Below, one piece after another: positions 17,501-48,878 of a stretch of DNA of 64,000 nt; positions within the stretch are counted from its first letter, which is position 1, and every line of letters begins with the position of its first letter. The notes beneath the pieces are model-generated. The model searched no databases and was not told the origin of the DNA. It was given only the letters and a program-made list of their open reading frames with translations. The DNA is taken from NCBI RefSeq assembly GCF_055900595.2, contig NZ_CM148325.1; one strand, written 5' to 3'. Position numbers and translations under genes: made by a program.

Positions 17501-20500
17501 CGTTGTTACCCGCGACGTTGCTGACGCTGGCCTGGATGTTTGCTGCGCCATCCGGCAAGGTTGCGAGATCGGCTGCTGGGATCGTCAGCCCCCAGGTATT
17601 ATCCGCGGCAACCGTGGTGGTGTAGCTTTTGCCACCGAAAATAACGGTAATGGTCTGCCCCGCTTCCACGCCGGAGGTGGTGCCAGAAAGCTGCAAATCA
17701 GTGCCTTTTTCGGCGGCGTTTATCACATCGTCAGTGGAGAGTGTATTGATGGTAATCGCCACGGCAGCGAGATTGACCGTGACCGGATGGCTAATGCTGG
17801 TTGTGGTTCCGGCGGTATTAGTGCCAGAGACGGCAATATTGACCGTCCCCGTAGGCCAGTTAGCCACGTCCGCTGCCGGAACGCCGACGCTCCAGGTGCC
17901 ATCGGCGAGTACCGTTGCGCCGTAGGTGACGCTATTGATAACCACCGTCAACGCCGCGCCCGCCGCCAGTCCGGTACTACTGCCGGTGACCACCAGTGCC
18001 TGAGTGTACTCAATGCTGTTAATCACATCATCGCCTGCCACGGTATCAACCCGCAGACCTGGCAAGTTGGCATCTATCACGATGTCGTGCGTTGCGGTGC
18101 CGGTATTATTTGCGGAATTGGTCACCGAGGCGCTGATGGTCAGTTCACTGTTACCCAGCGCCTGCAAATCTGCCGCAGGCACGCTGACGCTCCAGCTTAA
18201 ATCTGGCTGCACGGTGGCAATGTATTGATTACCGCCGAGCGTGACAGTGACCGAATCTCCTGCTGCTGCCGTCCCCGTAACCTGTCCGCTGAGGGTCTGG
18301 TTAACGGCGATTTCAGCGGCGTTGATAATGTCATCGCCCGCCACGGTATTAATAATCACCCCAGGCAGGAGCGATTCGACATTCACCGTATGGGTGGTGC
18401 TGCCGTTGTTGCCCGCGCTGTCGGTGGCACTGGCGCTAATCTGGTATACCGCCTCGCCCAGTGCGCCGACCGCCGAAGCAGGCACGGTAACGCTCCAGTT
18501 GCCGGAGCCGTCGGTGGTGGCGCTGTACGCCAGGCCGTTCAACATCACGGTGACCGTAGTGCCTGCCGCCAGGCCGCTGGAGACGCCGCTGATGATCAGA
18601 TCCTGGGTTTTCTCGGTATTGTTAATGATGTCATCGCCGGAGACGGTGTTGATGGTCAGCGTCGGGCCGCTGAGATCAACGGTCACATCGTGAGTCGTGC
18701 TGTCGCTGTTGCCCGCGCGATCGCTCAGGCTGGCGGTGATGGTCTGGCTACCGGTTGCCAGTGCCGTGACATCCGCCGCCGGAATACCCACACTCCAGTT
18801 ACCGGAGGCGTCCAGCGTTGTGGTGTAGTTTTTACCGTTCAGATTAACCGTGACCACATCGCCCGCCGCCGCGCCCGTACTGGTGCCGCTCACCACCAGC
18901 GCCTGACCATGTTCGATGGCGTTGATAATGTCATCGCCCGCGACGGTATTAATGGTGAGATCCGGCGCGGTAACGTCCACCGCCAGTGCATGATCCGCGC
19001 TTGCCGGGTTGCCCGCTTTGTCGCTCACCGTGGCGGTCACGGTATAACTGCTGGCGGTTAATCCGCTTAAATCTGTCGCCGGAACGTTCACACTCCAGGT
19101 GCCATCGGCCTGGACGGTAGTCTGGTACGTGTTGTTATTGAGCGTGACAGTCAGCGTCTGCCCGGCCTGCGCCGTGGTGGTGCCGCTGATAGTTATCCCC
19201 GCGCCCGCTTCACTCACGTTGAGAATATCGTCGCTGGCGATGGTGTTGATGGTCACAAGCGGCGCGGTGGCATCGACGCTGTACGCGCGATCGGCCTGGG
19301 CGCTGTTGCCGTTAATGTTGCTGACACTCGCCTGCACGTTGCCCGCGCCGTCCGGCAACGCAGCGAGATCGGCAGGCGGCACATTCACCGTCCAGCTACC
19401 GTTGGCTTCCACAGTGGTGGTGTAATTTTTGCCGCCAAAGGTGACGGTCACCGTCTGCCCGGCTTCTACACCGCTGGTACTGCCGCTCACCACCAGCGTT
19501 TCGCCTTTTTCGACGGCATTGATCACATCATCGCCGGAGAGAGTGTTAATGGTTATGGCGACCGCCGCCAGATCGACGGTAACCGGATGGGTAATGGTGG
19601 AGGTTGTTCCGGCGCTGTTGGTGCCGCTTACCGTGATATCCACCGTACCCGCAGGCCAGTTGCTGACGTCTGCCGCCGGAACGCCGAGGTTCCATGTACC
19701 GTCAGCTAACACCGTGGCAGCGTAAGTGACGTTGTTAATCACGACCGTTAATGCCGTTCCTGCCGTCAGCCCGGTGCTGCTACCTGTTATCACCAGCGCC
19801 TGATTGTGCTCAATGCTGTTAATAACATCATCGCCCGCTACGGTATCGACCCGCAAACCAGGCAGATTGGCATCGATCGTAATATCGCGCGAGCCGCTGC
19901 CGCTGTTGCCCACGACGTTGGTGACCGAGGCGTTAACTGTCAGGTCGCCGTTACCAAGCGCCTGAATATCCGCCGCCGGAACGCTGACACTCCAGCTTAA
20001 ATTAGCCTGCACCGTAGCGGTGTAGGTGTTGCCGCCCAGCGTGACGGTGACCGTATCGCCCGCCGCCGCGCCCGTCACCTGCCCGCTGATGGTTTGCACA
20101 CTGCCCGCTTCGGCGGCATTAATAATGTCATCGGTTGCCACTGCGTTAATGGTAACGCCAGGTAAGGCGCTGTTGACCAGCACATTATGGCTGACGGAAT
20201 TACTGTTGCCTGCCGTGTCGGTAACGCTCGCCGTTACCGTGTAGTTGGCTTCACCCAACGCGCTAGCTGCCGAGGCTGGCACCGTGGCGCTCCAGTTGCC
20301 ACTGCTATCGGTGGTAGCGGTGTAATTTTGTCCGTTCAGCGTCACTGTAATGGTGGTGCCTGCGGGCTGATTACTGGTGCCAGTAATTTGCAGATCCGCG
20401 CCTTTTTCTGTGGCGTTAATCACATCATCGGTGGCGATAGTATTGATACCTATCGTTGGCGAGGTGAGATTCACGGTGACCGTGCGGCTGGCATCATCGC

Positions 20501-23500
20501 TGTTGCCTGCCGCATCGGTAATGGCCGCAGTGATGGTTTGCGGGCCGCTGCCCAGCGCAGTGACGTCTGCTGCCGGAACGCCGACGCTCCAGTTGCCGGA
20601 GGCGTCCAGCGTGGTGGTATAAGTTTTACTGTTTAACGTGATGGTGATGACATCGCCCGCTTCGCCGCCAGTGCTGGAACCGGAGATCACCAGCGCCTGT
20701 CCGTGTTCGGCGGCGTTAATGATGTCATCGCCGGAGACGGTGTTAATGGTTAAAACTGGCACGGTGAGATCCACCGCCAGGCCGTGAGTGGCGGTCGCCG
20801 GGTTACCCGCTTTGTCGCTTACCGAGGCGCTGACCGTGTACGGGCTGGCGGTCAGATTGCTGAGATCCGCCGTCGGCACGCTGACGCTCCAGCTACCGCC
20901 CGCCTGAACGGTGCCGATGTAAGCCACACCATTAAGCGTGACGGTTACCGTTTGCCCCGCTTCGGCGGTGCTGGTGCCGCTGATGGTTAACGGATTGCCC
21001 GCCTCAGCGGCGTTAAGAATATCGTCTGTGGCAATAGTGTTAATGGCAAGCGTCGGTGCCGTGGCGTCGACGCTGTAGGCGTGGGTTGCCGAAGCCGTGT
21101 TGCCGTTAATATTGCTGACACTGGCCTGTACCGTGGCGTCGCCGTCACGTAACGCGCTGAGATCGGCGGTGGGTAGAGTAGTTGTCCAGCTACCATCGCC
21201 CGCTACGGTAGCAATATAGGTTTTGCCGCCAAAGGTGACGGTGACGGTTTGCCCCGCTTCCACGCCGGAAGTGCTGCCGGAAAGGGTTAACTCTGCCCCT
21301 TTTTCAGCGGCATTAATCACATCGTCGCCGGAAACGGTGTTAATGGAGATCGCCACCGCCGCCAGATCGACGGTGACCGGATGGGTGATGGTGGAGGTTG
21401 TTCCGGCAGTGTTAGTGCCGCTTACCGTGATATCCACCGTCCCCGCAGGCCAGTTGCCCACGTCTGCCGCCGGAACGCCAACGCTCCATGTGCCATCGGC
21501 TAATACTGTCGCAGCGTAAGTGACCGTGTTAATCACCACTGTCAGCGCCGCGCCCGCCGCCAGCCCGCTGCTGCTACCGGTTATCACCAGTGCCTGAGCG
21601 TGCTCGATGCTGTTGACCACATCATCGCCCGCCACGGTATCGACGCGCAGACCCGGCAGGTTGGCGTCTATCACAATATCGCGCGAACCGCTGCCAGTAT
21701 TACCCACGCCGTTGGTTACCGAGGCATTAACTGTCAGTTCGCCATTACCGATAGCCTGAATATCCGCCGCCGGAACGTCCACGCTCCAGCTAAAATTGCC
21801 CTGCACGGTAGCGGTGTAGGTTTTCCCGCCAATCGCCACGGTAACCGTATCGCCCGCCGCCGCACCCGTCACCTGGCCGCTGATGGTCTGCGCCACGCCC
21901 GATTCCGCCGCGTTAATAATATCGTCGGTCGCCACCGGATTAATGGTGACACCCGGCAGCGCGGTATTCACCTGCACGTTATGGCTGGCGGAATTGCTGT
22001 TGCCCGCGCTGTCGGTGACGTTCGCCGTCACCGTGTAACTGGCGTCGCCCAGCGCACCGACGGCAGAGGCTGGCACCGTGGTGCTCCAGTTGCCTGCGGC
22101 GTCCGTCGTGGCGGAGTAATTTTGCCCGTTAAGCGTCACCGTAATTGTGGTGCCTGTTGGCTGATTACTGGTGCCGGAAATTTGCAGATCCGCGCCTTTT
22201 TCCGTGGCATTAATCACGTCATCGCTGGCAATGGGGTTGATGCCAATGGTCGGCGCGGTAAGGTTAACGGTGACCGTGTGCGTCTCGTTGTCGCTGTTGC
22301 CAGCCACATCGGTAACGGTCGCCGTCACGGTTTGCGGGCCGCTGCCCAGCGCAGAGACATCCGCAGCCGGAACGCCGACGCTCCAGTTTCCGGAGGCGTC
22401 CAGCGTGGTAGTGTAGGTTTTATTGTTTAGCGTGACGCTGACGATATCGCCCGCCTCCCCGCCAGTGCTGGAACCGGAAATCACCAGCGCCTGCCCGTGT
22501 TCGGCGGCGTTAATAATATCATCGCCCGCAATGGTGTTAATGGTCAGTACCGGAACGGTGAGATCCACCGCCAGATTATGCGTGGTGCTCGCCGGGTTGC
22601 CCGCTTTGTCATTGACCGTCGCCGTCAGGGTATGGCTGCCATCGGTCAATGCCTCAAGATCTGCCGCCGGAATAGTAATACTCCAGCTGCCGTCCGCCTG
22701 CACTGTTGCCTGATAGGTCTGCACGGTCGGGCTGTTAAGCGTTACCGTAACAATCTGCCCCGCTTCAGCGGTGGTGCTGCCGCTCACCGTCACGCCCGCA
22801 TCGGCTTCGCTGGCGTTGACGATATTGTCGCTGGCGACGGTATTGATAATGATGGTTGGCGCGCTGCTATCGACGCTGTAGTTATGCACCGCCGAGGCGC
22901 TATTGCCATTGATATTGCTGACGCTGGCCTGCGCGGAGGCGCTGCCCTCAGGTAATGCTGCCAGATCGGCGGCAGGAACGGTGGCAGTCCAGCTACCATC
23001 GCTCGCCACGCTGGCGGTGTAATTTTTCCCGCCAAAGTTGACGGTGACGGTTTGTCCTGGCTCTACATTAGTGGTGGTGCCGGAAAGAGTTAAATCAGCG
23101 CCTTTTTCTGCGGCGTTAATCACGTCGTCCGTGGCGATGGTGTTGATTGTGATCGCCGCCGGAGTGAGATCCACCGTTACCGGATGCGTAATGCTCACCG
23201 GATTTCCGGCGCTACTTTCCCCGGATACAGCAATAGACACTGTTCCCGCAGGCCAGGCGCTAACCTGCGCCGCCGTGACGCCCACGCTCCAGCTACCATC
23301 GACCTGCACCGCAGTGGTGTATTCCACATTATTAATCGTAACTGTAAGCGGGGTGCCTTCTGCCAGCCCCGAGCTGCTGCCGGTGACCACCAGCGCCTGC
23401 CCGTGTTCGATGATATTGACCACATCATCGCCCGCTACCGTATCGACCCGCAGACCGGGCAGATTGGCGTCGATGGTGATATCCCGCGTGCCGCTGCCGG

Positions 23501-26500
23501 TGTTGCCGTTTTGATTGGTGACCGAGGCGCTCACCGTTAAATCACCATTACCCAGCGCCTGAATATCCGCCGCCGGAACGCTCACGCTCCAGCTTAAACC
23601 GGCCTGCACGGTGGTGCTGTAAGTATTACCGCCCAGCGTAACGGTTACCGTGTCGCCAACGGCGGCTCCAGTCACCTGCCCGCTGATGGTTTGCGCAGCC
23701 CCCGCTTCGGCGGCGTTAATAATATCGTCGGTTGCCACCGGGTTAATAGTCACGCCGGGCAGCGCGCTGTCGACCAGCACGTTATGGCTGGCGGTGGCGC
23801 TGTTGCCGATATCGCTGGTCACCGCCGCCGTTACCGTATAGTTGGCCTGGCCCAGTGCGGTTACCGCCGATGCCGGAACGGTGACGCTCCAGTTACCGGA
23901 GGCGTCGGTCGTGGTGGTGTAATTTTGCCCGTTCAGCGTCACTGTGATGGCGGTATTAACAGGCTGATCGCTGGTGCCGGTAATTTGAACATCGGCCCCT
24001 TTTTCGCTGGCGTTAATCACATCATCGCCCGCAATGGTGTTAATGCCAATCACCGGCGCGGCGGTATCAACCGTGACGGTCAGTGACTGGCTACCCGTAT
24101 TTCCGGCGCGATCAGTCACTGAAACGTTGATCGGATAACTGCCGTCCACCAGTCCGCTGACAACGGAGGCCGGAACGCCCAGACTCCAGTTGCCGGAAGC
24201 ATCCACCACCGTGGTGTAATCCACATCATTCAGCGTAACGGTGACAATATCGCCCGCCTGCGCGCCGGTGACCGTGCCGCTGATGATTTGCGCCTGGGTA
24301 TGTTCCGGCGTGTTAATGACGTTATCGGTTGCCACCGGATTAATGGTCACCACCGGCGGCGTGGCATCGACCAGCGCCACCCGTGAGACGCTGGTCGGAT
24401 TACCCGCGACATCGTTCACGCTCGCGGTCACCGTGGCGTTGCCGTCAGCCAGTGCGCCAACGTTGGCGGCGGGAACGGTCACGCTCCAGGAGCCAACTGA
24501 CTGCACGACGCCCTGATAGGTCTGCCCATTAAGCGTGACGGTCACCGTCTGCCCCGGCTGAGCGTCGGTGGTGCCAGTGATTTGCAGATCCTGACCACTT
24601 TCGGCGGCGTTAATGATGTTATCAGCCGTCAGCGAGTCGATGCTTAAAGCCGGAGCCAGGCTGTCGACGGTAATGGTGCGGGAGGTGTCGCCTGTGTTAC
24701 CGCTGATATTAGTAACGGTCGCAGTGATTTCCGTCGCACCGTCTGCCTGGCTACTCACCGCGCTGGCGGGAACGGTCAGGCTCCAGCCGCCACCTGCCTG
24801 AACGGTAGTGGTAAAGGTCTGCCCGGCGAATTTCACTACTACGGTTTGCCCGGTTTCCACCAGCTGCGTGGTACCGGTCAGCGTCAATGGCGCGCCTTTT
24901 TCTGCGGCATTGATAATGTCATCGCCGGAGACGGTATTGATGGTAATAAGCACCGCGCCCGGATTAACCTCCACGTTGCGATCGATAGTAACCGGGTTCC
25001 CGGCGGGGTCCGTTGCGCTGGCATTAACCACTATCGTACCCGGCGTCAGTGCCTGTAGATCTGCCGCAGGCACGCCTACCTGCCAGTTGCCGTTGCTGTC
25101 GGTCACCCCCTGGTAGGTGTTGCCGCCGAGCAAAACAGTGACCACTCTTCCGGCGGACAAATTAGTACTGCTACCGGTGATAATCAGGTTTTGCTGCTGC
25201 TCAACGGCATTGATCACATCATCGCCCGCGATGGTGTCAATGCGCAGCCCCGGCAGCCCGGCGCTGATGGTGATATCAAGCGCACTGCTACCCGTATTGC
25301 CATGTACGGTAGTAACCGAAGCATTAATGGTTAACGCACCATCGCCCAGCGCCTGTAAATCTGCCGCCGGAACGTTCACGCTCCAGGTGAGATTGCTGCC
25401 CACCGTCGCCGTGTAAGTATTGCCGCCCAGTTCAATAGTGACCGTATCGCCCTGCGCGGCGCCCACGACGACGCCACTCAGGGTTTGATCTGCTCCCGCT
25501 TCGGCGTTGTTGACAATGTTGTCGCCCGCAAAGGTGTTGATGATCACCTGCGGCAGCACCGTATCGACCAGCAAATTGCTCTGCGCGGTGCCAGTGTTGC
25601 CGGTCACATCGGTGGCGCTGGCAGTGACGGTGTAATTGGTGTTCGCAAGATTAACAACATCACTCACCGGAACGCTCAGCGACCAGACGCCGCCGCTGAC
25701 CTGAGCGCTATACGTGACATTATTCAACGTCACGCTAACTGTACCGCCATCGGGCAAATTGCTGGTGCCGCTTAACGTTAGCGGCTGCTGAGACTCCAAC
25801 GCATTCAGTACGTTATCTCCGCTGATAGCATCTATCGCGACTTGCGGCGCGACGCCCGCCAGGGTGATGTTATGAGTCGCTGTACCGGTATTTCCGGCGG
25901 CATCGGTCACCGTGACGATAATATCGTTAGGGCCACGCGCTAGAGTGCGAGTTACCGCCGGATCAAGCGCCACATTCCAGCTACCGTCTGCCTGCACCAC
26001 GCCGGACAGAACTGTGGCGCCTAACTTGACGGTGACCGTGTCGCCAGGGGAAGCCCCACTGACCCGCCCGGAAATAATCTGCGCCACAATCTGTTCGGCG
26101 GTATTAAGAATATCGTCACCCGCAACGGTGTTAACGCTGACCACTGGCGCACCGGTGTCTACTGTGAAATTTACGCTGTTGCTGGTGGTGTTTCCTGCCC
26201 GGTCGCTGACGCTGGCATTTATGGCGTAGTCGCCATCTGCCAGCGCCTGCACTTCTGCGGCAGGCAGCGTCACTTGCCAGGTTCCGTCACTACCGACAGT
26301 TGCTGTGTGGCTTTTCCCGTTAACGGTCAGTGTTACGGTTTGCCCGGCTTCTGCGTTCGAAGTGCCGCTCACTACCAGCGAGGCATTATGTTCTGAGGCG
26401 CTGACAATGTTGTCCTGAGCGATGGTGTTGATTGCAAGTGTTGGCGGCTGGGTATCGACCGTTAGCAGCTGCGCTCCGGTGACCGTATTGCCCGTGGCAT

Positions 26501-27560
26501 CTTTCCCACTGACCAGCACCGCCTGATTGCCTTCGCCTAATGTCTGGGCGTCGGCGGTCGGCACCTGCACGCTCCACGCGCCGTTAGCGCCTACGCTGGT
26601 GGTGTAAGTTTTGCCGTTTAGCGTGACGGTGAGTTCCGTTCCCTGTGCCAGATGGCTACTGGTGCCAGAAAGGGTAAACCCGGCGGCCTGTTCGCTGGCG
26701 TTAATGATGTTATCGCCTGCGGTGGTGGCGAGCTGTACGGCGGCCTGACTATTGTCGATGGTTAACGTTATCGACCCGGCGTTGGTAATGGTGCTGCCGA
26801 CGATTTGCACCACTGACCAGGTATGTTCGCCCGCGCTTTGTGTGGGCAAATCGACGCTCCAGCGTCCATCGCTACCGACCTGGGTACTGGCGATGGTGTC
26901 ACCATTGCTGTCTTTAATCTGGATGGTCGCCCCCGCCTGTCCGCTGCCGCTAAAGGTTGGCGTAGTGTCATCGGTGATATCGTTGGCGGAAAGAATACCG
27001 CGTTGATCGCCCTGATTATCGGTTACCAAAAACGATGGAGTGGCATTGCCGGGTTCGGCTGGCGGAGGGTTGTTAACCACTTCAGTTTTTGAGTCATCAT
27101 CACCACCGCTTGCCAGTAAAGCGCCAAGCGCGCCACCACCTACCGCGGCACCCGCTAACCATCCCCACGGGAAGGCACTGGTCTGAGCGACGGTATCAAG
27201 ATACGGCGCAATGCTTTCAATTGCGGTAGTCTGAGCGGTCAGCTCCACGGGCGCTAATCCACCCGCCGCGGTATCGGCAAAGGTGACATGAGTCAGCTGT
27301 TGCCCATCGGCAAACACCAGTTCGGATTGCTCGCTGGTATTTGCCGCTTGCAGGAAATAACCATTACAGCGGATCACCGTGCCGTCCTGCATATAAATCA
27401 GCAGATCGTTTCCATCGCGCACATAACGCGCAACGGCAGAGGCCTGAGCATGAACCTGCACCACGGAGGGCTCATAAATGACAACCGTAACGTCGCCAGG
27501 ATTAATCAGCGTTTGTTTGACGGATGTTTTTCGCGAAATAACATCAATAATCAGGCTCAT
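8583..27560 (-). CDS. giant T1SS-secreted adhesin (6,325 aa): LapA-like N-terminal module, ~45-50 Ig-like repeats, FG-GAP-like calcium-binding repeats, RTX-type GG repeats and C-terminal secretion signal
   Basis: single 18,978-nt ORF; ~100-aa repeats each with the ...INT(V/I)AGDD(I/V)INAAE... core; DFDGDGDMD / DWDHDGLMD / DYDWDGAVD motifs; GGNDTLNIGNGGHDTL near C-terminus; flanked by T1SS genes. Confidence 0.9.
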   Translation of the reverse strand: MSLIIDVISRKTSVKQTLINPGDVTVVIYEPSVVQVHAQASAVARYVRDGNDLLIYMQDGTVIRCNGYFLQAANTSEQSELVFADGQQLTHVTFADTAAGGLAPVELTAQTTAIESIAPYLDTVAQTSAFPWGWLAGAAVGGGALGALLASGGDDDSKTEVVNNPPPAEPGNATPSFLVTDNQGDQRGILSANDITDDTTPTFSGSGQAGATIQIKDSNGDTIASTQVGSDGRWSVDLPTQSAGEHTWSVVQIVGSTITNAGSITLTIDNSQAAVQLATTAGDNIINASEQAAGFTLSGTSSHLAQGTELTVTLNGKTYTTSVGANGAWSVQVPTADAQTLGEGNQAVLVSGKDATGNTVTGAQLLTVDTQPPTLAINTIAQDNIVSASEHNASLVVSGTSNAEAGQTVTLTVNGKSHTATVGSDGTWQVTLPAAEVQALADGDYAINASVSDRAGNTTSNSVNFTVDTGAPVVSVNTVAGDDILNTAEQIVAQIISGRVSGASPGDTVTVKLGATVLSGVVQADGSWNVALDPAVTRTLARGPNDIIVTVTDAAGNTGTATHNITLAGVAPQVAIDAISGDNVLNALESQQPLTLSGTSNLPDGGTVSVTLNNVTYSAQVSGGVWSLSVPVSDVVNLANTNYTVTASATDVTGNTGTAQSNLLVDTVLPQVIINTFAGDNIVNNAEAGADQTLSGVVVGAAQGDTVTIELGGNTYTATVGSNLTWSVNVPAADLQALGDGALTINASVTTVHGNTGSSALDITISAGLPGLRIDTIAGDDVINAVEQQQNLIITGSSTNLSAGRVVTVLLGGNTYQGVTDSNGNWQVGVPAADLQALTPGTIVVNASATDPAGNPVTIDRNVEVNPGAVLITINTVSGDDIINAAEKGAPLTLTGTTQLVETGQTVVVKFAGQTFTTTVQAGGGWSLTVPASAVSSQADGATEITATVTNISGNTGDTSRTITVDSLAPALSIDSLTADNIINAAESGQDLQITGTTDAQPGQTVTVTLNGQTYQGVVQSVGSWSVTVPAANVGALADGNATVTASVNDVAGNPTSVSRVALVDATPPVVTINPVATDNVINTPEHTQAQIISGTVTGAQAGDIVTVTLNDVDYTTVVDASGNWSLGVPASVVSGLVDGSYPINVSVTDRAGNTGSQSLTVTVDTAAPVIGINTIAGDDVINASEKGADVQITGTSDQPVNTAITVTLNGQNYTTTTDASGNWSVTVPASAVTALGQANYTVTAAVTSDIGNSATASHNVLVDSALPGVTINPVATDDIINAAEAGAAQTISGQVTGAAVGDTVTVTLGGNTYSTTVQAGLSWSVSVPAADIQALGNGDLTVSASVTNQNGNTGSGTRDITIDANLPGLRVDTVAGDDVVNIIEHGQALVVTGSSSGLAEGTPLTVTINNVEYTTAVQVDGSWSVGVTAAQVSAWPAGTVSIAVSGESSAGNPVSITHPVTVDLTPAAITINTIATDDVINAAEKGADLTLSGTTTNVEPGQTVTVNFGGKNYTASVASDGSWTATVPAADLAALPEGSASAQASVSNINGNSASAVHNYSVDSSAPTIIINTVASDNIVNASEADAGVTVSGSTTAEAGQIVTVTLNSPTVQTYQATVQADGSWSITIPAADLEALTDGSHTLTATVNDKAGNPASTTHNLAVDLTVPVLTINTIAGDDIINAAEHGQALVISGSSTGGEAGDIVSVTLNNKTYTTTLDASGNWSVGVPAADVSALGSGPQTVTATVTDVAGNSDNETHTVTVNLTAPTIGINPIASDDVINATEKGADLQISGTSNQPTGTTITVTLNGQNYSATTDAAGNWSTTVPASAVGALGDASYTVTANVTDSAGNSNSASHNVQVNTALPGVTINPVATDDIINAAESGVAQTISGQVTGAAAGDTVTVAIGGKTYTATVQGNFSWSVDVPAADIQAIGNGELTVNASVTNGVGNTGSGSRDIVIDANLPGLRVDTVAGDDVVNSIEHAQALVITGSSSGLAAGAALTVVINTVTYAATVLADGTWSVGVPAADVGNWPAGTVDITVSGTNTAGTTSTITHPVTVDLAAVAISINTVSGDDVINAAEKGAELTLSGSTSGVEAGQTVTVTFGGKTYIATVAGDGSWTTTLPTADLSALRDGDATVQASVSNINGNTASATHAYSVDATAPTLAINTIATDDILNAAEAGNPLTISGTSTAEAGQTVTVTLNGVAYIGTVQAGGSWSVSVPTADLSNLTASPYTVSASVSDKAGNPATATHGLAVDLTVPVLTINTVSGDDIINAAEHGQALVISGSSTGGEAGDVITITLNSKTYTTTLDASGNWSVGVPAADVTALGSGPQTITAAITDAAGNSDDASRTVTVNLTSPTIGINTIATDDVINATEKGADLQITGTSNQPAGTTITVTLNGQNYTATTDSSGNWSATVPASAASALGEANYTVTASVTDTAGNSNSVSHNVLVNSALPGVTINAVATDDIINAAEAGSVQTISGQVTGAAAGDTVTVTLGGNTYTATVQANLSWSVSVPAADIQALGNGDLTVNASVTNVVGNSGSGSRDITIDANLPGLRVDTVAGDDVINSIEHNQALVITGSSTGLTAGTALTVVINNVTYAATVLADGTWNLGVPAADVSNWPAGTVDITVSGTNSAGTTSTITHPVTVDLAAVAITINTLSGDDVINAVEKGETLVVSGSTSGVEAGQTVTVTFGGKNYTTTVEANGSWTVNVPPADLAALPDGAGNVQASVSNINGNSAQADRAYSVDATAPLVTINTIASDDILNVSEAGAGITISGTTTAQAGQTLTVTLNNNTYQTTVQADGTWSVNVPATDLSGLTASSYTVTATVSDKAGNPASADHALAVDVTAPDLTINTVAGDDIINAIEHGQALVVSGTSTGAAAGDVVTVNLNGKNYTTTLDASGNWSVGIPAADVTALATGSQTITASLSDRAGNSDSTTHDVTVDLSGPTLTINTVSGDDIINNTEKTQDLIISGVSSGLAAGTTVTVMLNGLAYSATTDGSGNWSVTVPASAVGALGEAVYQISASATDSAGNNGSTTHTVNVESLLPGVIINTVAGDDIINAAEIAVNQTLSGQVTGTAAAGDSVTVTLGGNQYIATVQPDLSWSVSVPAADLQALGNSELTISASVTNSANNTGTATHDIVIDANLPGLRVDTVAGDDVINSIEYTQALVVTGSSTGLAAGAALTVVINSVTYGATVLADGTWSVGVPAADVANWPTGTVNIAVSGTNTAGTTTSISHPVTVNLAAVAITINTLSTDDVINAAEKGTDLQLSGTTSGVEAGQTITVIFGGKSYTTTVAADNTWGLTIPAADLATLPDGAANIQASVSNVAGNNAQATHVYSVDATAPSVTINTIASDDILNAAEAGSALTISGTSTAEAGQTVTVTLNGINYSGNVQADGSWSVSVPTGDLADLTASPYTVSAAVSDKAGNPTSATHNLTVDLAAPVVTINTVAGDDIINATEHAQAQIISGSATGATTGNTVSVTIGTTTYTTVLDANGNWSIGVPASVISALAQGDVTITATVTDSAGNSGTASHTVSVALGAPILAINTIAVDDIINATEKGADLSISGTSNQPAGTQVTVTLNGQNYTTTADASGNWSVTVPASAVGTLGEATYTVTAAATDVDGNSGSASHNVQVNTALPGVTINVVATDDIINAAEAGATQTISGQVTRAAAGDTVTVTLGGATYTATVQADLSWSVDVPASALQALGNGELSISASVTNSVGNTGNGTREITIDANLPGLRVDTVAGDDVVNIIEHGQALVITGSSSGLAVGSNVTLTINGQTYVAAVLADGTWSVGVPAVDVSAWPAGAVTITASGSTTAGNSVSVTHPVTVDLSAVAVSINAITTDDVINAAEKGAALTLSGSTSGVEAGQTVTVTFGGKTYTASVAANGSWSTTVPAADMAALRDGDASAQASVSNVNGNSATTTHAYSVDATAPTVTINTIAGDDILNAAEAGAALTITGSSTAEAGQTVTVTLNGANYTGTVQTDGSWSISVPPADLSALTASNYTVSAAVSDKAGNPTSVNHNLTVDTSVPVVTINTVAGDDVINATEHAQAQIISGSATGAATGNTVTVTIGTNTFTTVLDASGNWSVGVPASVVSALANGTVTINASVTDAAGNSGNASHQVTVNTGLPTITFNAISSDNVLNADEKGQPLTISGSSTGLATGAQVTVTLNGHNYSATTDAAGNWTLTVPVSDLAALGQANYTVSASATSAAGNTASSQANLLVDSGLPGVTINTVADDDIINAAEAGADQTISGGVTRAAAGDTVTVTLGGNTYTATVQGNLSWSVSVPAADLQALGNGDLTITASVTNANGNTGSGTRDITIDANLPGLRVDTVAGDDIVNSIEHGQALVITGGSSGLNAGAVLTVTINSVAYSTTVQADGSWSVGIPAANVSAWPAGALTVDVTGQSSAGNPVSVSHPFTVDLTAVAISINTVASDDVINAAEAGSALTLSGTGTNFAAGTVVTVLLNGKGYSATIQSNGSWSVNVPAADVAALADGTSYTVSASAQDSAGNSATASRSVAVDLTAPIISINTVSTDDRLNAAEQQQPLTLNGSTSAEVGQTVTVTFGGKTYTATVAANGTWALNVPAADLASLGQGAQTITASVNDRAGNPGQTTHALTVDTVAPTVTIATVAGDDIINNAEQLAGQTISGTTTAEAGQTVSVTFNGQNWTATVGSGGSWSVFIPAQQFAGLSDGSYTISATVSDQAGNPGSASRGVTLNGDVPTVTINTLAGDDVVNAAEHGASLVISGTTTAPVGQTLTLTLNGKTYTTTVQTGGSWSYTLGSADVTALADGNAYVINASVSNAIGNIGSSNHTITVDLSAPAMGINIDSLQADTGLSASDFITSVSPVVVNGSLTAALASNETAQISIDGGVTWSTLTVTGTTWRYNDSRTLTDGNYLYQVRVIDAAGNVGATDSQNVVIDTTAPDPAVKTIAISAITTDTGLITNDFVTSDTTLAVSGTLGSALSAGEFAQISIDGGTTWQNLAVNGLTWTYLDGRTLTDGNYNYQVRVIDTAGNIGATASQIVTVDTTAPLASKTIVIAGISDDTGLSSSDFVTRDTTLTVRGTLGAALAADERAQISLDGGVTWATLTVIGTSWSYADGRTLTDGTWNYTVRVVDLAGNVGQTATQNVVVDTISPEAAKSITITGISDDTGASSSDFITSDTTLTVRGVLGAALGANEFAQISTDNGATWVNVTVAADGLNWTYVDGRTLTNGTTTWQVRVVDLAGNVGATGSQSAQIDTVNPAQVLTIASISTDTGSSATDFITSDTTLTLTGSLGAGLASGEVAQISLDGGATWTTLTTNGTQWTYTDSRTLTDGSYVYQVRVLDLAGNTGPVVSKTVVVDTINPTATPTIVSYTDDVGQRQGTFSNSQATDDTTPLLNGVLSAPLASGEVVYLYRNGLLLGAVTMVGALNWTYSDSGLVSGAYTYSARVVDLAGNITSSSDFVLTVDTSIPTTLAQITNQTTRDTTPIISGVLTAALASGQYVEVVINGKTYTSQPGGAVVVDPAHNTWYVQLPDTDALAASATAYNVTAQVKSSAGNGNTANVSTGTVTVNAAIDYTPTWTTTSKSTAWGLTYGLDNHGMWTVLANQQIMQSTDPLTWSKTALTLVQSGNNYATSSIADYNRNGTGDLFITRDDYGTGYINGFTNNGDGTFSSAIQVNVGTLTWYGSIVAFDKEGDGYLDFWIGDAGGPDSNTFLWNNAGTLTGNSTTANNGGSATVGGAVTGYLSLNEGSGVDLNNDGRIDLVQHTFNLNNNFTLSSLISQGNGTFVWGQNTVNTFLSSPGSGGNSTSVSMTWADFDGDGDMDLFLPASQGRANYGSLLFNTNGVLGSPVAVGATATTYASQFSLAVDWDHDGLMDIARIAQTGQSYLYTNVSNASNWTQSALGGSQSGTTSGVAAMDYDWDGAVDVLVTKQSGSVFLIRNTNTVSYGTSLHLRITDPNGINVYYGNTVKLYNSAGVLVATQIINPQSGMGVNDTSALVNFYGLNAGETYNAVLIKSTGTTASNIDQTVNTSWGGLQATDATHAYDLSAEAGTASNNGKFVGTGYNDTFFATAGTDTYDGSGGWVYSSGTGTWLANGGMDVVDFRLSTVGVTANLSVTTAQATGFNTSTFTNIEGISGSNFNDTLTGSSGDNQLEGRGGNDTLNIGNGGHDTLLYKLLNASDAAGGNGSDVVNGFTVGTWEGTADTDRIDIRELLQGSGYTGNGKASYVNGVATLDAQAGNIGDFVKVTQSGSDTIVQIDRDGTGGGFATTNMVTLTGVHTDLATLLANHQLMVV

Positions 27561-27668
27561 AATGGCATTCCTGATAAATGGCGCATATCCTTAGCGAGTC
27601 CATTTATCTAAATAAGACAAAGGTAATCACTTAACAACGATGCATACCTGATATTAATAATGGCAGGA

Positions 27669-29024
27669 TTATTTTAAGTCGGGTAAGTCGTTGTATAAGC
27701 CCTGTTTAATTCCCGCTAATGGAATAAGGTTATTCACCGCAGCGGCATAATTTACGGCGGCGACCCAGCCATCATAATTGGCATTTATTTCAGCCGATTG
27801 CGCCTGAAAAACATCTTGCTCGACGGTTAATAGATCATTCAGGCTTCGGTTACCCAATTTATATTCATTTTGATAAACATCCCGCGTTCTGTGCGCACTT
27901 TCGGATTGCGCTAAACCGGCCTCTTCACGTCCCCGTGCCCCAGTCCAGTTGGCATACGCCACCGACGCCCGTTGCATAACATCTAATTTCGCCTGCTCAA
28001 CCTGCGAGGCAGAGATTTTTTGTTGCCCTTCGGCCTGTTGCACCTGGGCTGAAACCGCGCCGCCCTGATACAACGGCGCGTTGACGTTCAGTTGTAACTG
28101 GTCATCCCAGTACGAGCGGTCGCTGGTCTGGTAGCGCGTTTTGCCGCCCTGAATACTGAGCGTCGGCCAGTATTGCGATTTGGTTTTTTCCACACCGTAC
28201 TGAGCAGACTGACGTAAGTTTTCTGCCGCCAGAACCAGCGGTATGGACTGGTAATCAATATTTTTTAGCGACACTGGCTGCTCGGCTAATTCAGCAGGTG
28301 GCGCGGCTATCCTCTCCGGCTGTACACCAGTGAGCACCGCCAGTTGCGCTTTGGCGCTTGCCATTTGCGCCTGGTATTGCTCCAGCGTCGAGCGCATTGC
28401 CGCTATACGCGTCTGTGCCTGTAATTCATCGGATGATGAGTTAAGCCCGGCGTTGGCGCGCAGTGCCGCCATGTTGTAGACATTTTCCAGAGAGTGAATA
28501 TTACGCTGCGCAGCGTCGCACAACGCCTGATATCGGCTCACTTCCATATAGGTCGTCGCCGTTTTTTCGGCTACGTCAGTTAAGGTTGCCATCAGTTTAA
28601 AGCGGTAGCTGTCACGAGCGGCGGTTTGTAGTTTGATATCGTTATCTGTTTTACCGAAGTCATACACCAGCTGCGTCAGGGTTATGCCATAAGAGACGTT
28701 GTTATCCAGCCTGCCGCTGGAGTCCGTTTGCCGGGACGGCCCCGCGTTGCCGGTTAATCCAACGTGTGGATACCAGGCACTTTTGGCTTCATCGATTTGC
28801 GCTTCGCCAATACCTATCTGCGCCGCCTGTTGAGTGACGTCGGGATTTCGCGCAAAGGCGCGTAATATACTTTCCTGTAAAGATAATCGGGCAACTGGCG
28901 TTACCGCTGGGGCGTTCGCCCATTGTGGCAGCGGTGCAGCAATTGTAGCTTCTCCCATCACCATAAAACTTATTAAAAAAATAAGTCCATTATTTTTACG
29001 GTTTTTAAACTGGAATCGCGCCAT
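27669..29024 (-). CDS. TolC-family outer membrane channel of the type I secretion system
   Basis: 451 aa with signal peptide and two repeated coiled-coil/beta halves typical of outer membrane efflux proteins; first gene of the OMP-adhesin-ABC-MFP cluster. Confidence 0.85.
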   Translation of the reverse strand: MARFQFKNRKNNGLIFLISFMVMGEATIAAPLPQWANAPAVTPVARLSLQESILRAFARNPDVTQQAAQIGIGEAQIDEAKSAWYPHVGLTGNAGPSRQTDSSGRLDNNVSYGITLTQLVYDFGKTDNDIKLQTAARDSYRFKLMATLTDVAEKTATTYMEVSRYQALCDAAQRNIHSLENVYNMAALRANAGLNSSSDELQAQTRIAAMRSTLEQYQAQMASAKAQLAVLTGVQPERIAAPPAELAEQPVSLKNIDYQSIPLVLAAENLRQSAQYGVEKTKSQYWPTLSIQGGKTRYQTSDRSYWDDQLQLNVNAPLYQGGAVSAQVQQAEGQQKISASQVEQAKLDVMQRASVAYANWTGARGREEAGLAQSESAHRTRDVYQNEYKLGNRSLNDLLTVEQDVFQAQSAEINANYDGWVAAVNYAAAVNNLIPLAGIKQGLYNDLPDLK

Positions 29025-29327
29025 AGATAAGTCACTTCCTTCCAGGTCATTATTTTAACTGGTTTTTATAACCAGTCTCATTTTATTAAGAAGGGTAATA
29101 ACTTGTGCACCTCTTTTGTCGAACATTGAGATTGGAAAAGAAATGCAGTTAAAAAGCTTATACGTTATTTATTTAGAATACACTACGACTTTTAGATTAC
29201 CATCATACGCATTAAGAATAATCCACAGCAATAAGTGATTAGTATCACAGATTTATCGCGTATATATCATTTTTTTGTGACTTATTTATTAAAGGAATAA
29301 GAAAGGAAATTTGAATTAAAGACAAAG

Positions 29328-29350
29328 GCGCAGTACAGAAAGTACTGCGC
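29328..29350 (-). terminator. putative terminator hairpin downstream of ybaT
   Basis: perfect 9-bp inverted repeat gcgcagtac-agaaa-gtactgcgc just 3' of the ybaT stop. Confidence 0.45.
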
Positions 29351-29361
29351 GCAGAGAGGTT

Positions 29362-30654
29362 TTATACGGCTTTATTGCGCTTCATGACCATTGCCACAAT
29401 AAGGCTGAGTAAGAGTGCGCCAATAATCCATATCAGCGCACGACTGCCCTGGGACCACAGACTGTAGATGAAGCCAACGATCACCAACAACATAACCAAC
29501 GTGCCAACGATAAGAATCGGCAACGAGGCATGGATATCATGACGCAGGCGCATCGCCACCACAAACACCGCCAGGTAGCAGATCAAAAAGGTGGCACTGG
29601 CAACGCTGGCGAGTGAGCCTAAATTTAGCGCCGCCGTCATCAGCATAATCAACACCACGACGATGATGTTGCCCCAGGTACTCTGCCGCCACAGAGATTT
29701 ATTCATTAGCTTCGGCAGTTCGCGTTCGCTTCCCATGTTGTCCATGATGTTAAACACGGCGAACAGGTTCGCGTTGATGGCTGAAGCCGTCGCCAGTAAA
29801 GCACCGATGACAACGATCACATAACCCACATGCCCGAGGAGCGGAGATGCGGCCTGCGCTACGGCGGTATCGGCATATTTTTCTAACTCTAATGCCGATA
29901 CATCGCTAAGCAGTACCAGCGCCAGCGCGATGTAAAGCAGTGTGGTAACGCCAATCGCCACCAGAAACGCCCGTGGCATAATGACCGCCGGATCTTTCAC
30001 TTTATCCGCCGCGTTCGCCATCATGCCAAAGCCCGCATAGGCAAGGAAGGTTATCCCGATACAGGAGAAGAACGCACCGGAGCTGGGAGGCGCAGAGACG
30101 GAAATATGCGCCGGTTGTAGCGACCAGACACCGGCAATAATCAGCAATAACAGGATCATCATTTTAATGCCGACGAGGATCACTTCCAGCCGCCCTACCG
30201 CATGGTTGCTTAAGGAGTTGAAAAGCGTCATCACCGCAATGATCCCCAACGCGTAGAGCAAAATAAGGTGCTCCTCCTGGCTGCCTTCATGCAAAAACTG
30301 CACGGCATAAGCGCCAAAAGCACGGGCGACCATGGCGATACTCACCGCCAGCGTCAACAGGTACAGTAACGAGAGCGCCAGCGAAAAGACGCCGTTGCCT
30401 AATCCGCGACGAAAGAAGTCGATAATACCGCCATTGCTGGGATAGCTCGCCCCCAGACGCGCATAGGCATAACCGGAAAACATCGCCACAATACCGCCAA
30501 AAGCAAAGGCGACCCAGGTCGAGGCTTCCATTAGCAACGCAGCCTGCCCCAGCAGCGCGAAGATCCCCGCCCCCACCATTGCCCCAATGCCGATGGAAAC
30601 GACGTTCCATAGACCGAGAGGTTTGTTACCGTTATTACCTTCCGTGTTCATCAT
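29362..30654 (-). CDS. ybaT: APC-family amino acid transporter YbaT
   Basis: 430-aa polytopic membrane protein, immediately downstream of glsA as in E. coli. Confidence 0.9.
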   Translation of the reverse strand: MMNTEGNNGNKPLGLWNVVSIGIGAMVGAGIFALLGQAALLMEASTWVAFAFGGIVAMFSGYAYARLGASYPSNGGIIDFFRRGLGNGVFSLALSLLYLLTLAVSIAMVARAFGAYAVQFLHEGSQEEHLILLYALGIIAVMTLFNSLSNHAVGRLEVILVGIKMMILLLLIIAGVWSLQPAHISVSAPPSSGAFFSCIGITFLAYAGFGMMANAADKVKDPAVIMPRAFLVAIGVTTLLYIALALVLLSDVSALELEKYADTAVAQAASPLLGHVGYVIVVIGALLATASAINANLFAVFNIMDNMGSERELPKLMNKSLWRQSTWGNIIVVVLIMLMTAALNLGSLASVASATFLICYLAVFVVAMRLRHDIHASLPILIVGTLVMLLVIVGFIYSLWSQGSRALIWIIGALLLSLIVAMVMKRNKAV

Positions 30655-30656
30655 GA

Positions 30657-31589
30657 TCAGCCCTTAAACACGTTATAGCCGAGTTGCTTAGCGACCGATG
30701 CCACCATTTTTTGACCGCGAACACTGTTGCCTTCTTCGTCCAGCGGTGGTGAGAACGCGGCAATTCCCATCACGCCAGGGACGACCGCCAGAATACCGCC
30801 ACCTACACCGCTTTTGCCCGGTAAACCAACGCGATACGCCCAGTCACCGGAGCGACCATACAGCCCTTCCATCATCATTTCGGCCAGAATGTACGGCACG
30901 TTGTCGGCCTGAAGAACGCGTTTATGCGTCAGCGGATTCACACCACCCGCCGCCAGCGTCGCGCCAAGCGTTGCCAGTTCAATAGTATTGAGGAGCGTGG
31001 AGCACTGACGGGTATACACGTCACAGGCTTCCATTGCATCACAATAGAGATATCCGGCGGAGTACAGCAGCCAGGCTATGGCCCGGTTATGGAAGTTGGT
31101 TGTTTATTCCGACTGGTTGACTTCATCAGAGAGCGCTACCTGCTCACCAGCCAGTTGTTGTTGGATATGTAAAATTCGCTGCCAGCGTTGTTCGGCATTT
31201 TCAGCGTTAATCAGGCTGGTGGTGGCAATAGCGCCAGCATTTACCAGTGGCGAAAGCGGTTTGCCGCCATGCAACTCTAAGGCGATAACCGAGTTAAAGG
31301 GCAATCCGGTCGGGTCAGCGCCAATTTTGTCCTGTACCGCCTGCGGGCCGACATCTTCTAACGCGAGGGCTAACGTACAGACTTTTGAAATGGATTCCAG
31401 CGCAAAGCGGTAATCACTGTCACCCGCGCTAAAGACTTTACCATCGCAGGTCACGATAGCCACTGCCGCCAGTTGACTGGGCACATTCGCCAGAAAGGGA
31501 ATGTAATCGGCATTTTGTCCGCCGTTAAGTGAGTGAAATTGGGTGTAAGCCTGATCCACTGCCTGCTGTAATGTGTTTGCATCTAACAT
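30657..31589 (-). pseudogene. glsA: glutaminase 1 gene interrupted by one in-frame TAA (codon 162); otherwise full length
   Basis: ORFs 31104..31589 and 30657..31034 are in the same frame and together give the 310-aa glutaminase; minus-strand reads tcg gaa TAA aca acc. Confidence 0.8.
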
Positions 31590-31780
31590 CTTTTGTTAAC
31601 TCCTTTTTATAGATGCGGGAGGGGATTCCTCACCCCGGTGCCGATTTTCAGGCATCCTGATTTAACTTAGCACCCGCGACTTAACTACAGGAAAACAAAG
31701 AGATAAATGTCTAATCCTGATGCAAATTGAGCCGATTTTTTAATCTTTACGGACTTTTACCCGCCTGGTTTATTAATTTC

Positions 31781-31799
31781 TTGACCTTCCCCTTGCTGG
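31781..31799 (+). promoter_or_regulatory. copA promoter -35 hexamer and left half of the CueR operator, cut off at the prophage junction
   Basis: TTGACCTTCCCCTTGCTGG matches the copA promoter/CueR box recalled from E. coli K-12, but the right half of the dyad and the -10 are replaced by different sequence from about 31800. Confidence 0.55.
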
Positions 31800-31868
31800 G
31801 GACAAAGAACTGCGTGGTGTAAAATAACACCACGCAATATCAATAAGTTACATAACCACTTTAACTCT

Positions 31869-32882
31869 CTACCTCCCTTTTTCCTCAAAATGTGGACACT
31901 CAATGGACATATCACATAGCGGATTATGCATCACAGCATCGCTTAAATAATCCGGCGAAAAATGCGCATAAGTCATTGTCTGAGATATATCTGCATGACC
32001 GAGGATTTTTTGAAGAGAAATAATATTCCCCCCATTCATCATAAAATGGGTGGCAAATGTATGCCTCAATACATGAACCGCTTGACCGTCCGGCAAATTA
32101 GGCTTAGCCACCTTCAGTTTCAGCCTAAACCATTTATAACTCACCCGAAATAAACGCCCCTCCTTGCGATGTTTTACAAGCCTAACAACATCATCAGAAA
32201 CAGGAACAACCCGACGCTTATTATTTTTTGTGAAATTAAATACAACCTTATTACCGATAATATGTTCCCCCATTAGCTGATATGCTTCATTCCAGCGACA
32301 GCCTGTAGACAACAAAAGGACAGCCATTCGGTAATAATCTCCCGAACCCTTGCAGATAGAAAGAAACGCACCAATCTCTTCATGATTAAGATAAGCCATC
32401 TCTGGGGTTTTTTCCTTGAGGCGAGGAAGCGACAATACAGGGTTACTACCGTGATATTCACCAATCTCTGCCATAGCCTTTAACGCAGCGCTAAACGCAA
32501 AAAGATCATGGTTGATTGTAGATGCCTTAACCCCTTGATCGAGACGGCGCGATCTATATTCAGCAACCATGCGTTCATCAATCTCGTACATCATAGGGTC
32601 ACCCATATCAAGACAAATACACTGGAGGTTATTCAGTCTACGATTCGCGTAATCCTTGTGACGACCTATCAGTAACCACCACGTCGCAATGAAATCGCTT
32701 AAATATCGCTTGTCCAGAAGATTACCGAAAACATCAACAGAAGGGCGATCAGCAAGAACTTCGCGTTCAAATGCTACAGCCAGATTTTTTTTCTCAAACT
32801 TCCGACGAATGCGCCTTCCCTTACTTCCGTCGGGTCGAATGTCCACAAAATAGCGACCATCTTCGAGCTTCTTAATTGACAT
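31869..32882 (-). CDS. int: P2-family tyrosine integrase
   Basis: MSIKKLEDGRYFVDIRP... close to P2 Int N-terminus; C-terminal R..H..R..Y catalytic region (HVLRHTFATH, MTYAHF); ORF track start 32912 probably too far upstream. Confidence 0.9.
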   Translation of the reverse strand: MSIKKLEDGRYFVDIRPDGSKGRRIRRKFEKKNLAVAFEREVLADRPSVDVFGNLLDKRYLSDFIATWWLLIGRHKDYANRRLNNLQCICLDMGDPMMYEIDERMVAEYRSRRLDQGVKASTINHDLFAFSAALKAMAEIGEYHGSNPVLSLPRLKEKTPEMAYLNHEEIGAFLSICKGSGDYYRMAVLLLSTGCRWNEAYQLMGEHIIGNKVVFNFTKNNKRRVVPVSDDVVRLVKHRKEGRLFRVSYKWFRLKLKVAKPNLPDGQAVHVLRHTFATHFMMNGGNIISLQKILGHADISQTMTYAHFSPDYLSDAVMHNPLCDMSIECPHFEEKGR

Positions 32883-32951
32883 AAGAAGACCCTCCAACAG
32901 TCCATTCTCCATCTTGAAAACAGATAGAGAAAACGTATTCCTTATAAAGAG

Positions 32952-33251
32952 TTAACCAGTCTGTTTCCCTGATTGGGGTGACGTTGTTTCGACGTGCCCA
33001 CAGTGTGCGAGAGCCGGGGCTATTTGCCCGTGTTCTGGGTCGATGCGGTCATACATAAACCAATTCTGATACTTATGAAAACGGGGGTGACCAAATATCT
33101 TAATTGCAGATTCCAATGTCATCTTAGATTTGTCACGCTCATAGCCGTGATAGGTTGTGTAATTAAGCCCTACTAAATCAACAAATTGCTGTTTTGTTAG
33201 CCTTTCCGAATCTCGCATGATCGCTAACTTTTCACCTTGAGTATTTGACAT
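32952..33251 (-). CDS. C: P2 C-type immunity repressor
   Basis: 99 aa, MSNTQGEKLAIMRDSERLTKQQFVDL...GQIAPALAHCGHVETTSPQSGKQTG closely resembles P2 C. Confidence 0.9.
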   Translation of the reverse strand: MSNTQGEKLAIMRDSERLTKQQFVDLVGLNYTTYHGYERDKSKMTLESAIKIFGHPRFHKYQNWFMYDRIDPEHGQIAPALAHCGHVETTSPQSGKQTG

Positions 33252-33345
33252 ATTTACGAGTACTCCATATAGTTACGCAAAAACAACATTCCTAGCCTAA
33301 AACGGCAAAACACCGTCAAAGGCCGATTAGGCTAAGCAAGCCTCA

Positions 33346-33993
33346 ATGAATGGCAACCTTGGAGTGTATCAAAAAATGGCAAAACAACGAGATTTTGAAC
33401 AAATCACGACACATCAGCATTGCCGTCTCTATCCATTAGACGGCTACATCACGATGAACGTGTGCAAAATGAGTTCAACGCAGGCTGGACGCATACGTGA
33501 TATGAGTCTGAGCGACTTACAACAACAGGAGTTTGTTAGCCCAGAGGAGTTTGCATACATCACGGGGCGCACCTACAAAGCAGCCAAAAACATCATGGAC
33601 CGAAACGAAAGCCTGCTTATTAAGGAATACGCCACGCCAGACGCAACACGACCTAAGCGATTTATCAGACTCCAGCACTACTGGGCCGCAATTATCAACA
33701 ACAAAGCATCGCTGACACCACGCGAGCATCTATTTATCAATGAGATTCGAAACAACAAAACGCTTTACCGCGAGATGATGAAAATCAATCTCAAGATTCG
33801 CGAAGGGCGAGAAGTCTCGAAAAAAAACCAAGATACTCCCATCAATCGCAATCAGCGGCATAACACCAAAAGGAGTTTTCCCATGTGCGACCTGAGCAAA
33901 GCAGAGCTAATTGCAATCATATTGTTTGCCATAGATTTTGGTTTTCTTTTGAGCGGCGCAATTCTCCTTCCTGCAATTAACAGGAAAAATTAA
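33346..33993 (+). CDS. Cox/Apl-like HTH excision and switch regulator; start uncertain, C-terminal hydrophobic tail
   Basis: segment EFAYITGRTYKAAKNIMDRNESLLIKEY resembles Cox/Apl HTH; divergent from C; probable true start near 33502. Confidence 0.45.
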   Translation: MNGNLGVYQKMAKQRDFEQITTHQHCRLYPLDGYITMNVCKMSSTQAGRIRDMSLSDLQQQEFVSPEEFAYITGRTYKAAKNIMDRNESLLIKEYATPDATRPKRFIRLQHYWAAIINNKASLTPREHLFINEIRNNKTLYREMMKINLKIREGREVSKKNQDTPINRNQRHNTKRSFPMCDLSKAELIAIILFAIDFGFLLSGAILLPAINRKN

Positions 33994-34023
33994 TCACCAC
34001 TGCAAATAACAAGAGCCAACAAC

Positions 34024-34239
34024 ATGACCCCAAGACAAGTATTAATCTCCAAAAATGATGACATATTGCACTTTCAAGTAAAATACATAATAGCCACAAC
34101 AAAGGTAGGAACATCAATCTATATACACTATCAGAATTTCTATCTGGAGAGAGTCTTCGAAACGGAAGGAGAAGCCCAGAAGTTTTTGATACACATAAAA
34201 GATTGCATAGAAGGAAAAATAAGACCAGGGGATCAATAA
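34024..34239 (+). CDS. hypothetical early protein (71 aa)
   Basis: ORF in early operon; stop overlaps next start (TAATG). Confidence 0.35.
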   Translation: MTPRQVLISKNDDILHFQVKYIIATTKVGTSIYIHYQNFYLERVFETEGEAQKFLIHIKDCIEGKIRPGDQ

Positions 34240-34547
34240 TGCGAAAACATTATTCACAACCATATATCCGTAACAGTGCGCCACGCAGCAATAACCGCTG
34301 GAGCCTGCGCGAAACACACGCAACACCAGGCGGTCACGTTGTAAAACAAACTGGGGAACACACCTGGCTGATTGAGCAGGCTGGACTCGTGATCCACAGA
34401 TGCAACCGCAATCCGTTTACCGGAAACCGCATCTTTGCACTGAGCAGCGGCGACAACCAGTTCGGGCAGGATTTCACGCTACACGAAGCCCTGCGAACTG
34501 CCGACCGCTTAATCGCGGGGCGCAGCTTTCAGCACCCGGATTACTAA
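34239..34547 (+). CDS. hypothetical early protein (102 aa)
   Basis: ATG at 34239 overlapping upstream stop. Confidence 0.4.
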   Translation: MRKHYSQPYIRNSAPRSNNRWSLRETHATPGGHVVKQTGEHTWLIEQAGLVIHRCNRNPFTGNRIFALSSGDNQFGQDFTLHEALRTADRLIAGRSFQHPDY

Positions 34548-43884: not shown

Positions 43885-43910
43885 GCGAAGCAGCAGACAA
43901 GCGAAGCGCG

Positions 43911-46717: not shown

Positions 46718-46782
46718 TTCTCCCCCTCATGTGATTCAGGCAGTTTACTCACCCCTTACAGGCCTCCTGCCATGCCCGGTGT

Positions 46783-46806
46783 TGTCGGCATTCGCTTACA
46801 ACAAAC
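46783..46806 (+). promoter_or_regulatory. Ogr-type late promoter element (TGT-N12-ACA dyad) in the divergent P/O control region
   Basis: TGTcggcattcgcttACA at 46783-46800, about 70 nt upstream of the O start. Confidence 0.45.
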
Positions 46807-46871
46807 GCACTTTGTCTGTCCCTGCCCCGTTTTGCCATCATGAGACAAACGATCATCACGAGGGCCCGACA

Positions 46872-47708: not shown

Positions 47709-47736
47709 CAGAAATAACCACAAGAGGTGATAACCG

Positions 47737-48876: not shown

Positions 48877-48878
48877 CC

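Follow-up and report, generated by a model that had tools for sequence, protein, structure and literature searches.

Two open reading frames on the minus strand of the 64,000-nt stretch of DNA analysed here (the window) raise the question of whether the glutaminase gene glsA (ybaS) has been inactivated in this strain by one base change, or whether its interruption is a flaw of the sequence. The answer reached is that a real, recent and strain-private C-to-T change, converting CAA (Gln162) to TAA, very probably turned glsA into a pseudogene, with loss of the glutamine-dependent acid-resistance branch AR2_Q as the expected result.

A glutaminase gene divided by an ochre codon

The original prediction held that the open reading frames at 31104..31589 and 30657..31034 share a frame and together specify a 310-aa glutaminase broken solely by a TAA at codon 162. 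Both parts of this claim were borne out, as the open reading frame list and translation gave products of 161 aa and 125 aa in one frame, and translation of 31589..30657 gave 310 codons followed by the natural TGA (Table 1). The context of the stop on the minus strand is tcg gaa TAA aca acc, the T being window position 31106, and the change is a transition (C to T on the coding strand, G to A on the plus strand) at gene position 484.

The identity of the gene was established by profile and sequence comparisons. Both fragments matched the glutaminase profile PF04960, the N-terminal one over profile positions 1-139 (E = 5e-45) and the C-terminal one over positions 165-286 (E = 8e-49). When Gln162 was restored, residues 1-310 of the protein aligned with residues 1-310 of E. 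coli YbaS (PDB 1U60) at E = 1e-203, the two differing by a few substitutions. The catalytic Ser-x-x-Lys dyad is present in the sequence LESISK (residues 63-69), which aligned to LQSCVK of human KGA and places YbaS Ser66/Lys69 opposite KGA Ser286/Lys289. The surroundings are also those of glsA: the glsA-ybaT pair lies between copA and cueR, and relatives have the order copA-glsA-ybaT with cueR further on. Here cueR is inside the window and copA is past a prophage, outside the window, while ybaT starts 2 nt past the glsA stop.

Table 1. Features of the glsA region, with coordinates on the window and the basis of each assignment.
Feature	Coordinates	Strand	Basis or remark
glsA (ybaS, glutaminase 1/A), predicted pseudogene, 310 codons with one internal ochre	30657..31589	minus	Pfam; alignment to 1U60; 1 nt from intact WP_032302592.1 of the nearest genomes
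Premature TAA, codon 162 (mutated base 31106)	31104..31106	minus	sole difference from genomes L001-L003; T and C probes; same T in the Logan SRR27886137 contig
Predicted translated product, GlsA residues 1-161 (Tyr29, Ser66-x-x-Lys69, Asn117; ends at Glu161)	31107..31589	minus	Pfam profile 1-139 of 286; KGA residue mapping; PMC4929687; PMC5695133
3' part of glsA predicted to be untranslated, codons 163-310 (Asn168, Tyr192, Tyr244, Ser247, Ser260, Val262)	30657..31103	minus	open reading frame list; Pfam; KGA alignment
ybaT (APC-family permease), downstream in the same operon	29362..30654	minus	own AAGGG ribosome-binding site; DNA identical to closest relative Z0117EC0005
Native glsA upstream region, 210 nt	31590..31799	minus	identical to prophage-free relatives (alignment)
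Prophage att core, 20 bp, CCAGCAAGGGGAAGGTCAAG, at the boundary of chromosome and P2-family prophage	31780..31799	minus	alignment
Hairpin, 12-bp stem and T-run, right after the integrase stop and before the att core	31809..31838	minus	strong
Prophage tyrosine integrase	31869..32912	minus	open reading frame list; Pfam; context only, outside the lesion
TolC-like gene flanking the adhesin gene	27669-29024		
Giant Ig-like, BapA/SiiE-type adhesin gene, 6,325 codons, repetitive, intact	8583-27560	minus	
T1SS ABC and HlyD genes flanking the adhesin gene	5245-8579		
cueR	about 4837-5248	minus	

Origin, authenticity and age of the codon 162 change

The glsA gene was compared by megablast with 5,426 complete E. 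coli genomes, 5,422 of which carry it at 80% of full length or more (at least 80%). There was no perfect (100%) match among the 5,426, and eight genomes matched with one mismatch. Three of these eight nearest genomes were retrieved (L001-L003), and in each the sole mismatch is position 484, where they have C and the window has T; C is also the base in L004, a more distant relative. Because the nearest genomes differ at that base alone, the two open reading frames are best read as a single gene cut by one base and not as a chance pair. The original prediction had guessed CAA as the sense codon and proposed a comparison with glsA alleles of related strains. Such alleles indeed have CAA (Gln162) where the window has TAA: the codon is CAA in L001-L004, L006 and L007, and elsewhere the gene remains colinear, which is the pattern of a nonsense pseudogene.

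The spread of the allele was examined with a 35-nt probe centred on the mutated base, every 28-nt megablast seed being forced to span that base. The control probe carrying C was found in 5,065 of the 5,426 genomes, 3,985 of them at 100%, and misses 361 genomes (~7%) through flanking SNPs. The version carrying T was found in none of the 5,426 complete E. coli genomes, an absence that applies to the genomes that the probe reaches. With an ancestral CAA, and a T allele absent from the complete genomes testable in this way, the inactivation does look strain-specific, as had been proposed. The host lineage is itself uncommon, with 8 of 5,426 complete genomes 99.9% identical in glsA and most E. coli at ~97.5%; those eight genomes come from a dog from Korea and from human material (Mali, Japan and other places), which is stool wherever its type is given.

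The exact 161-aa product was then found to have one source only in a collection of 15 billion proteins, the Logan assembly of sequencing run SRR27886137. The contig concerned, of 10,611 nt, is identical to window 23700..34310 at 10,611 of 10,611 positions, stop included, and the shared span runs from the beginning of the adhesin gene across the TolC-like gene, ybaT and the prophage junction. This contig is an assembly from raw reads that may share source data with the window. The C-terminal fragment (P0016, 120 aa) is found on six further contigs as well, all of them metagenomic and disrupted in other ways, by N runs, indels, chimeric joins or a different stop. Occurrence of the same lesion in these other samples was rejected, as four of the six contigs span position 484 and all have C, and two do not cover it.

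These results bear on the second alternative of the original prediction, namely that a sequencing, assembly or polishing error has hidden a true C and an intact glsA. The T allele is known from one strain and one run, and the Logan assembly may rest on the same data as the window, so an artefact shared by both assemblies, or a mutation picked up in laboratory culture, may have produced it. Nevertheless, an error is very unlikely because de novo assembly of the SRR27886137 raw reads reproduces the T in a sequence that equals the window over 10.6 kb. Moreover, the change is a substitution outside any homopolymer run, the repetitive adhesin reading frame of 18,978 nt is open in the window, and wherever the window aligns with the closest relative, the adhesin gene excepted, it has no indel. 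A Dcm (CCWGG) deamination hotspot was considered as a source of the mutation and rejected, since the mutated C lies within GGAACAAAC, which when read for the motif holds no Dcm site.

Alignment of ~31 kb of chromosomal DNA with the closest relative, Z0117EC0005, revealed 16 substitutions. Of these 16, only the glsA stop disrupts a gene in the window, and the only indel lies inside the adhesin gene and belongs to the annotated frameshift of the relative. A recent origin of the glsA mutation is suggested by this pattern, because glsA has taken a single lesion and both ybaT and the promoter region are untouched. Neither a poor assembly nor decay of the genome at large was accepted as a source of the stop, given that the stop is the sole disruptive change and the giant adhesin reading frame is intact.

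The adhesin gene differs among relatives. Its orthologue is annotated 'frameshifted; internal stop' in three of three genomes examined among the eight closest complete genomes. In Z0117EC0005 the gene is ~2.7 kb longer, the repeat number being different, and has a 1-nt indel together with TAG (amber) at codon 2813, where the window has CAG.

Predicted effects on glutaminase, ybaT and acid resistance

Translation of the mutant gene would halt after Glu161 and release a 161-residue fragment. Residues described as key to YbaS are Ser66, Lys69, Tyr244, Ser247 and Ser260 (PMC5695133, citing Brown et al. 2008). Further positions were mapped by a HMMER alignment with human KGA together with the structure paper on the KGA-DON complex (PMC4929687), the numbering offsets being those implied by the alignment. 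The residues encoded before the stop are Tyr29 (KGA Tyr249), Ser66 and Lys69, Asn117 (KGA Asn335) and, as the final residue ahead of it, Glu161 (KGA Glu381). Lost after the stop are Asn168 (KGA Asn388), Tyr192 (KGA Tyr414), Tyr244 (KGA Tyr466) and Val262 (KGA Val484, of the oxyanion hole). In KGA, the Tyr466Ala exchange strongly impaired activity (PMC4929687).

No single uninterrupted polypeptide with all active-site residues is encoded, TAA162 parting Ser66/Lys69 from Asn168, Tyr192, Tyr244, Ser260 and Val262. The fragment would therefore keep its Ser66/Lys69 dyad and be without the second half of the protein, Ser247 included; because Asn168, Tyr192, Tyr244 and Val262 fall after the stop, the predicted product would be short of roughly half the fold and half the substrate pocket. 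Reinitiation giving a useful C-terminal protein was considered and rejected, as no Shine-Dalgarno-like motif stands before any downstream in-frame start, including ATG186 (31034) and GTG191 (31019), and products of such restarts would be without the nucleophile. A suppressor tRNA nearby was likewise rejected, since ARAGORN finds no tRNA or tmRNA gene in the 64-kb window. From the loss of key residues, and from downstream in-frame starts that have no ribosome-binding site, we infer that the glutaminase is almost certainly dead. The locus is accordingly read, on its sequence, as glsA by descent and not as a functional member of the family.

It could be argued that the stop is bypassed, by an ochre suppressor tRNA, by programmed recoding or by fragments that reassemble to an active enzyme, especially as both halves of glsA are still perfectly conserved and the N-terminal fragment terminates right after a substrate-binding residue. 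This is extremely improbable. A recent mutation accounts for the perfect conservation of the halves, and no tRNA gene lies within the 64-kb window. In E. coli, UAA is recognised by both release factors and is the stop codon least prone to read-through. Programmed recoding would go with a stop conserved among relatives, whereas this one is shared by no relative (T in 0 of 5,426 genomes; CAA in close relatives). A split enzyme, for its part, would miss residues 162-185, Asn168 among them, and its C-terminal part would have to start where no Shine-Dalgarno-like motif is found.

If glsA is indeed inactivated by Q162*, then ~450 nt of mRNA between the premature stop and ybaT would be left untranslated and free of ribosomes, and expression of ybaT may drop through polarity. 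The prediction of strong Rho-dependent polarity is weak, however, as C slightly exceeds G in only the first ~100 nt beyond the stop (C/G 1.05-1.35) and the remainder is G-rich. No terminator-like hairpin was found between the premature stop and ybaT. Expression of ybaT is probably not abolished, because the gene retains its own ribosome-binding site.

The expected phenotype can be drawn from published work. YbaS and GadC suffice for glutamine-dependent survival at pH 2.5, and cells deleted for ybaS lose Gln-dependent release of ammonia and survival in acid (PMC3641589). Deletion of ybaST halved acid survival and sensitised cells to copper, and ybaST is reported to be copper-inducible (PMC9628877). 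The strain would thus be expected to be without acid-activated glutaminase 1, and with it without AR2_Q (YbaS and GadC) and the YbaS-dependent share of copper tolerance at low pH. In other words, glutamine-dependent acid resistance is predicted to be missing, and the Gad system to be kept if it is intact elsewhere in the genome.

The neighbouring prophage and other glsA losses

The statement of the original prediction that glsA sits beside prophage and adhesin islands was confirmed, with a P2-family prophage upstream and the giant adhesin/T1SS island downstream. Chromosomal homology stops at 31799, 210 nt upstream of the glsA ATG, and the prophage extends from 31800 to past the window end (64000); in the closest relatives copA is found 262 nt upstream of glsA. 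The hairpin that follows the integrase gene probably shields glsA from transcription running out of the prophage. The prophage itself is, by sequence comparison, rather diverged within the P2 family, because its structural module (portal, terminase and capsid; 43900-50000) is only ~77% identical in DNA to the nearest deposited phages, Chuche, PhiR44_2 and P88.

The attachment site overlaps a regulatory element. The reverse complement of the att core, CTTGACCTTCCCCTTGCTGG, accounts for 19 of the 27 nt in a CueR-binding copA promoter fragment, TTGACCTTCCCCTTGCTGGAAGGTTTA (PMC9004249). In strain CM2, where the other junction could be read (L016, 7483-7640), duplication of the core restores a complete promoter and operator next to copA, and the partial operator copy that faces glsA is without the AAGG half-site or the -10 element.

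The same prophage end is present at the same site in five complete genomes, which are chicken-associated, and the two of these five that were examined (CM2 and GF60) have an intact glsA with C at position 484. The prophage was rejected as the cause of the stop on the strength of these two lysogens and of the unchanged 210-nt upstream region; as judged from these sequences, it neither caused the lesion nor regularly accompanies it. One could also suppose that glsA decayed secondarily, after the insertion had silenced it by cutting off the copA/CueR side of the intergenic region. The insertion lies within the operator that CueR binds at the divergent copA promoter, 210 nt before the glsA ATG, and the copper induction reported for ybaST (PMC9628877) would fit such silencing. 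This account is nonetheless highly improbable: the 210 nt upstream of glsA are unchanged and contain the ybaS promoter region reported at -159..-49 (PMC6250119), glsA is intact with C484 in both same-site lysogens examined, and one lesion in glsA with none in ybaT is unlike long-standing relaxed selection.

Loss of glsA is not confined to this strain. Other truncated GlsA proteins on complete chromosomes include one ended by a stop codon following residue 216 and present on 28 contigs (CAM7630077.1, 216 aa), and strain E101 has a frameshift near residue 217 (EHO01245.1, 222 aa). A further variant has a 50-residue in-frame deletion, and C-terminal fragments of S. dysenteriae GlsA occur on 54 contigs (SPZ69707.1). 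Because truncated GlsA occurs in other lineages, sporadic inactivation of glsA is already a known kind of event, and the Q162* allele is new yet unremarkable.

The recurrence of independent glsA lesions in E. coli and Shigella invites the view that the loss of glutaminase 1 is adaptive and positively selected, as against a neutral or mildly deleterious accident, and loss of cadA in Shigella, considered pathoadaptive, would be a parallel. Positive selection is unlikely here, given that glsA persists at 80% of its length or more in 5,422 of 5,426 complete genomes, that the Q162* allele is confined to one strain, and that in a collection this large any non-essential gene is expected to show a few recurrent lesions. 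A broader version, in which loss of glsA is convergent as well as adaptive and Q162* is one of many E. coli/Shigella knockouts selected by niche, for example where glutamine deamidation at low pH is costly, is decidedly unlikely. With the reading of Q162* as a recent and strain-private nonsense mutation, glsA should be annotated as a pseudogene in this strain; the allele adds one more to the scattered natural knockouts of glsA and reveals no new mechanism.

Compared with E. coli K-12 YbaS/GlsA (glutaminase 1, 1U60), the enzyme of AR2_Q, the locus is alike in its repaired 310-aa sequence, in the glsA-ybaT operon and in its copA-cueR location. It differs in that codon 162 is TAA, such that just residues 1-161 could be made, and in that a P2-family prophage parts glsA from copA and the TolC/giant-adhesin/T1SS island parts ybaT from cueR. 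With the other truncated glsA alleles of E. coli and Shigella it shares the kind of event, a point or indel inactivation of an otherwise conserved gene, but those alleles are disrupted at different positions and in different lineages, and none of those inspected ends at residue 161. In Brucella abortus, GlsA Ser248Leu is likewise a case in which one nucleotide change in a natural lineage abolishes glutaminase-dependent acid resistance (PMC5695133). That change is a missense mutation, fixed in the species and verified experimentally, whereas Q162* is a nonsense mutation of one strain with a predicted effect.
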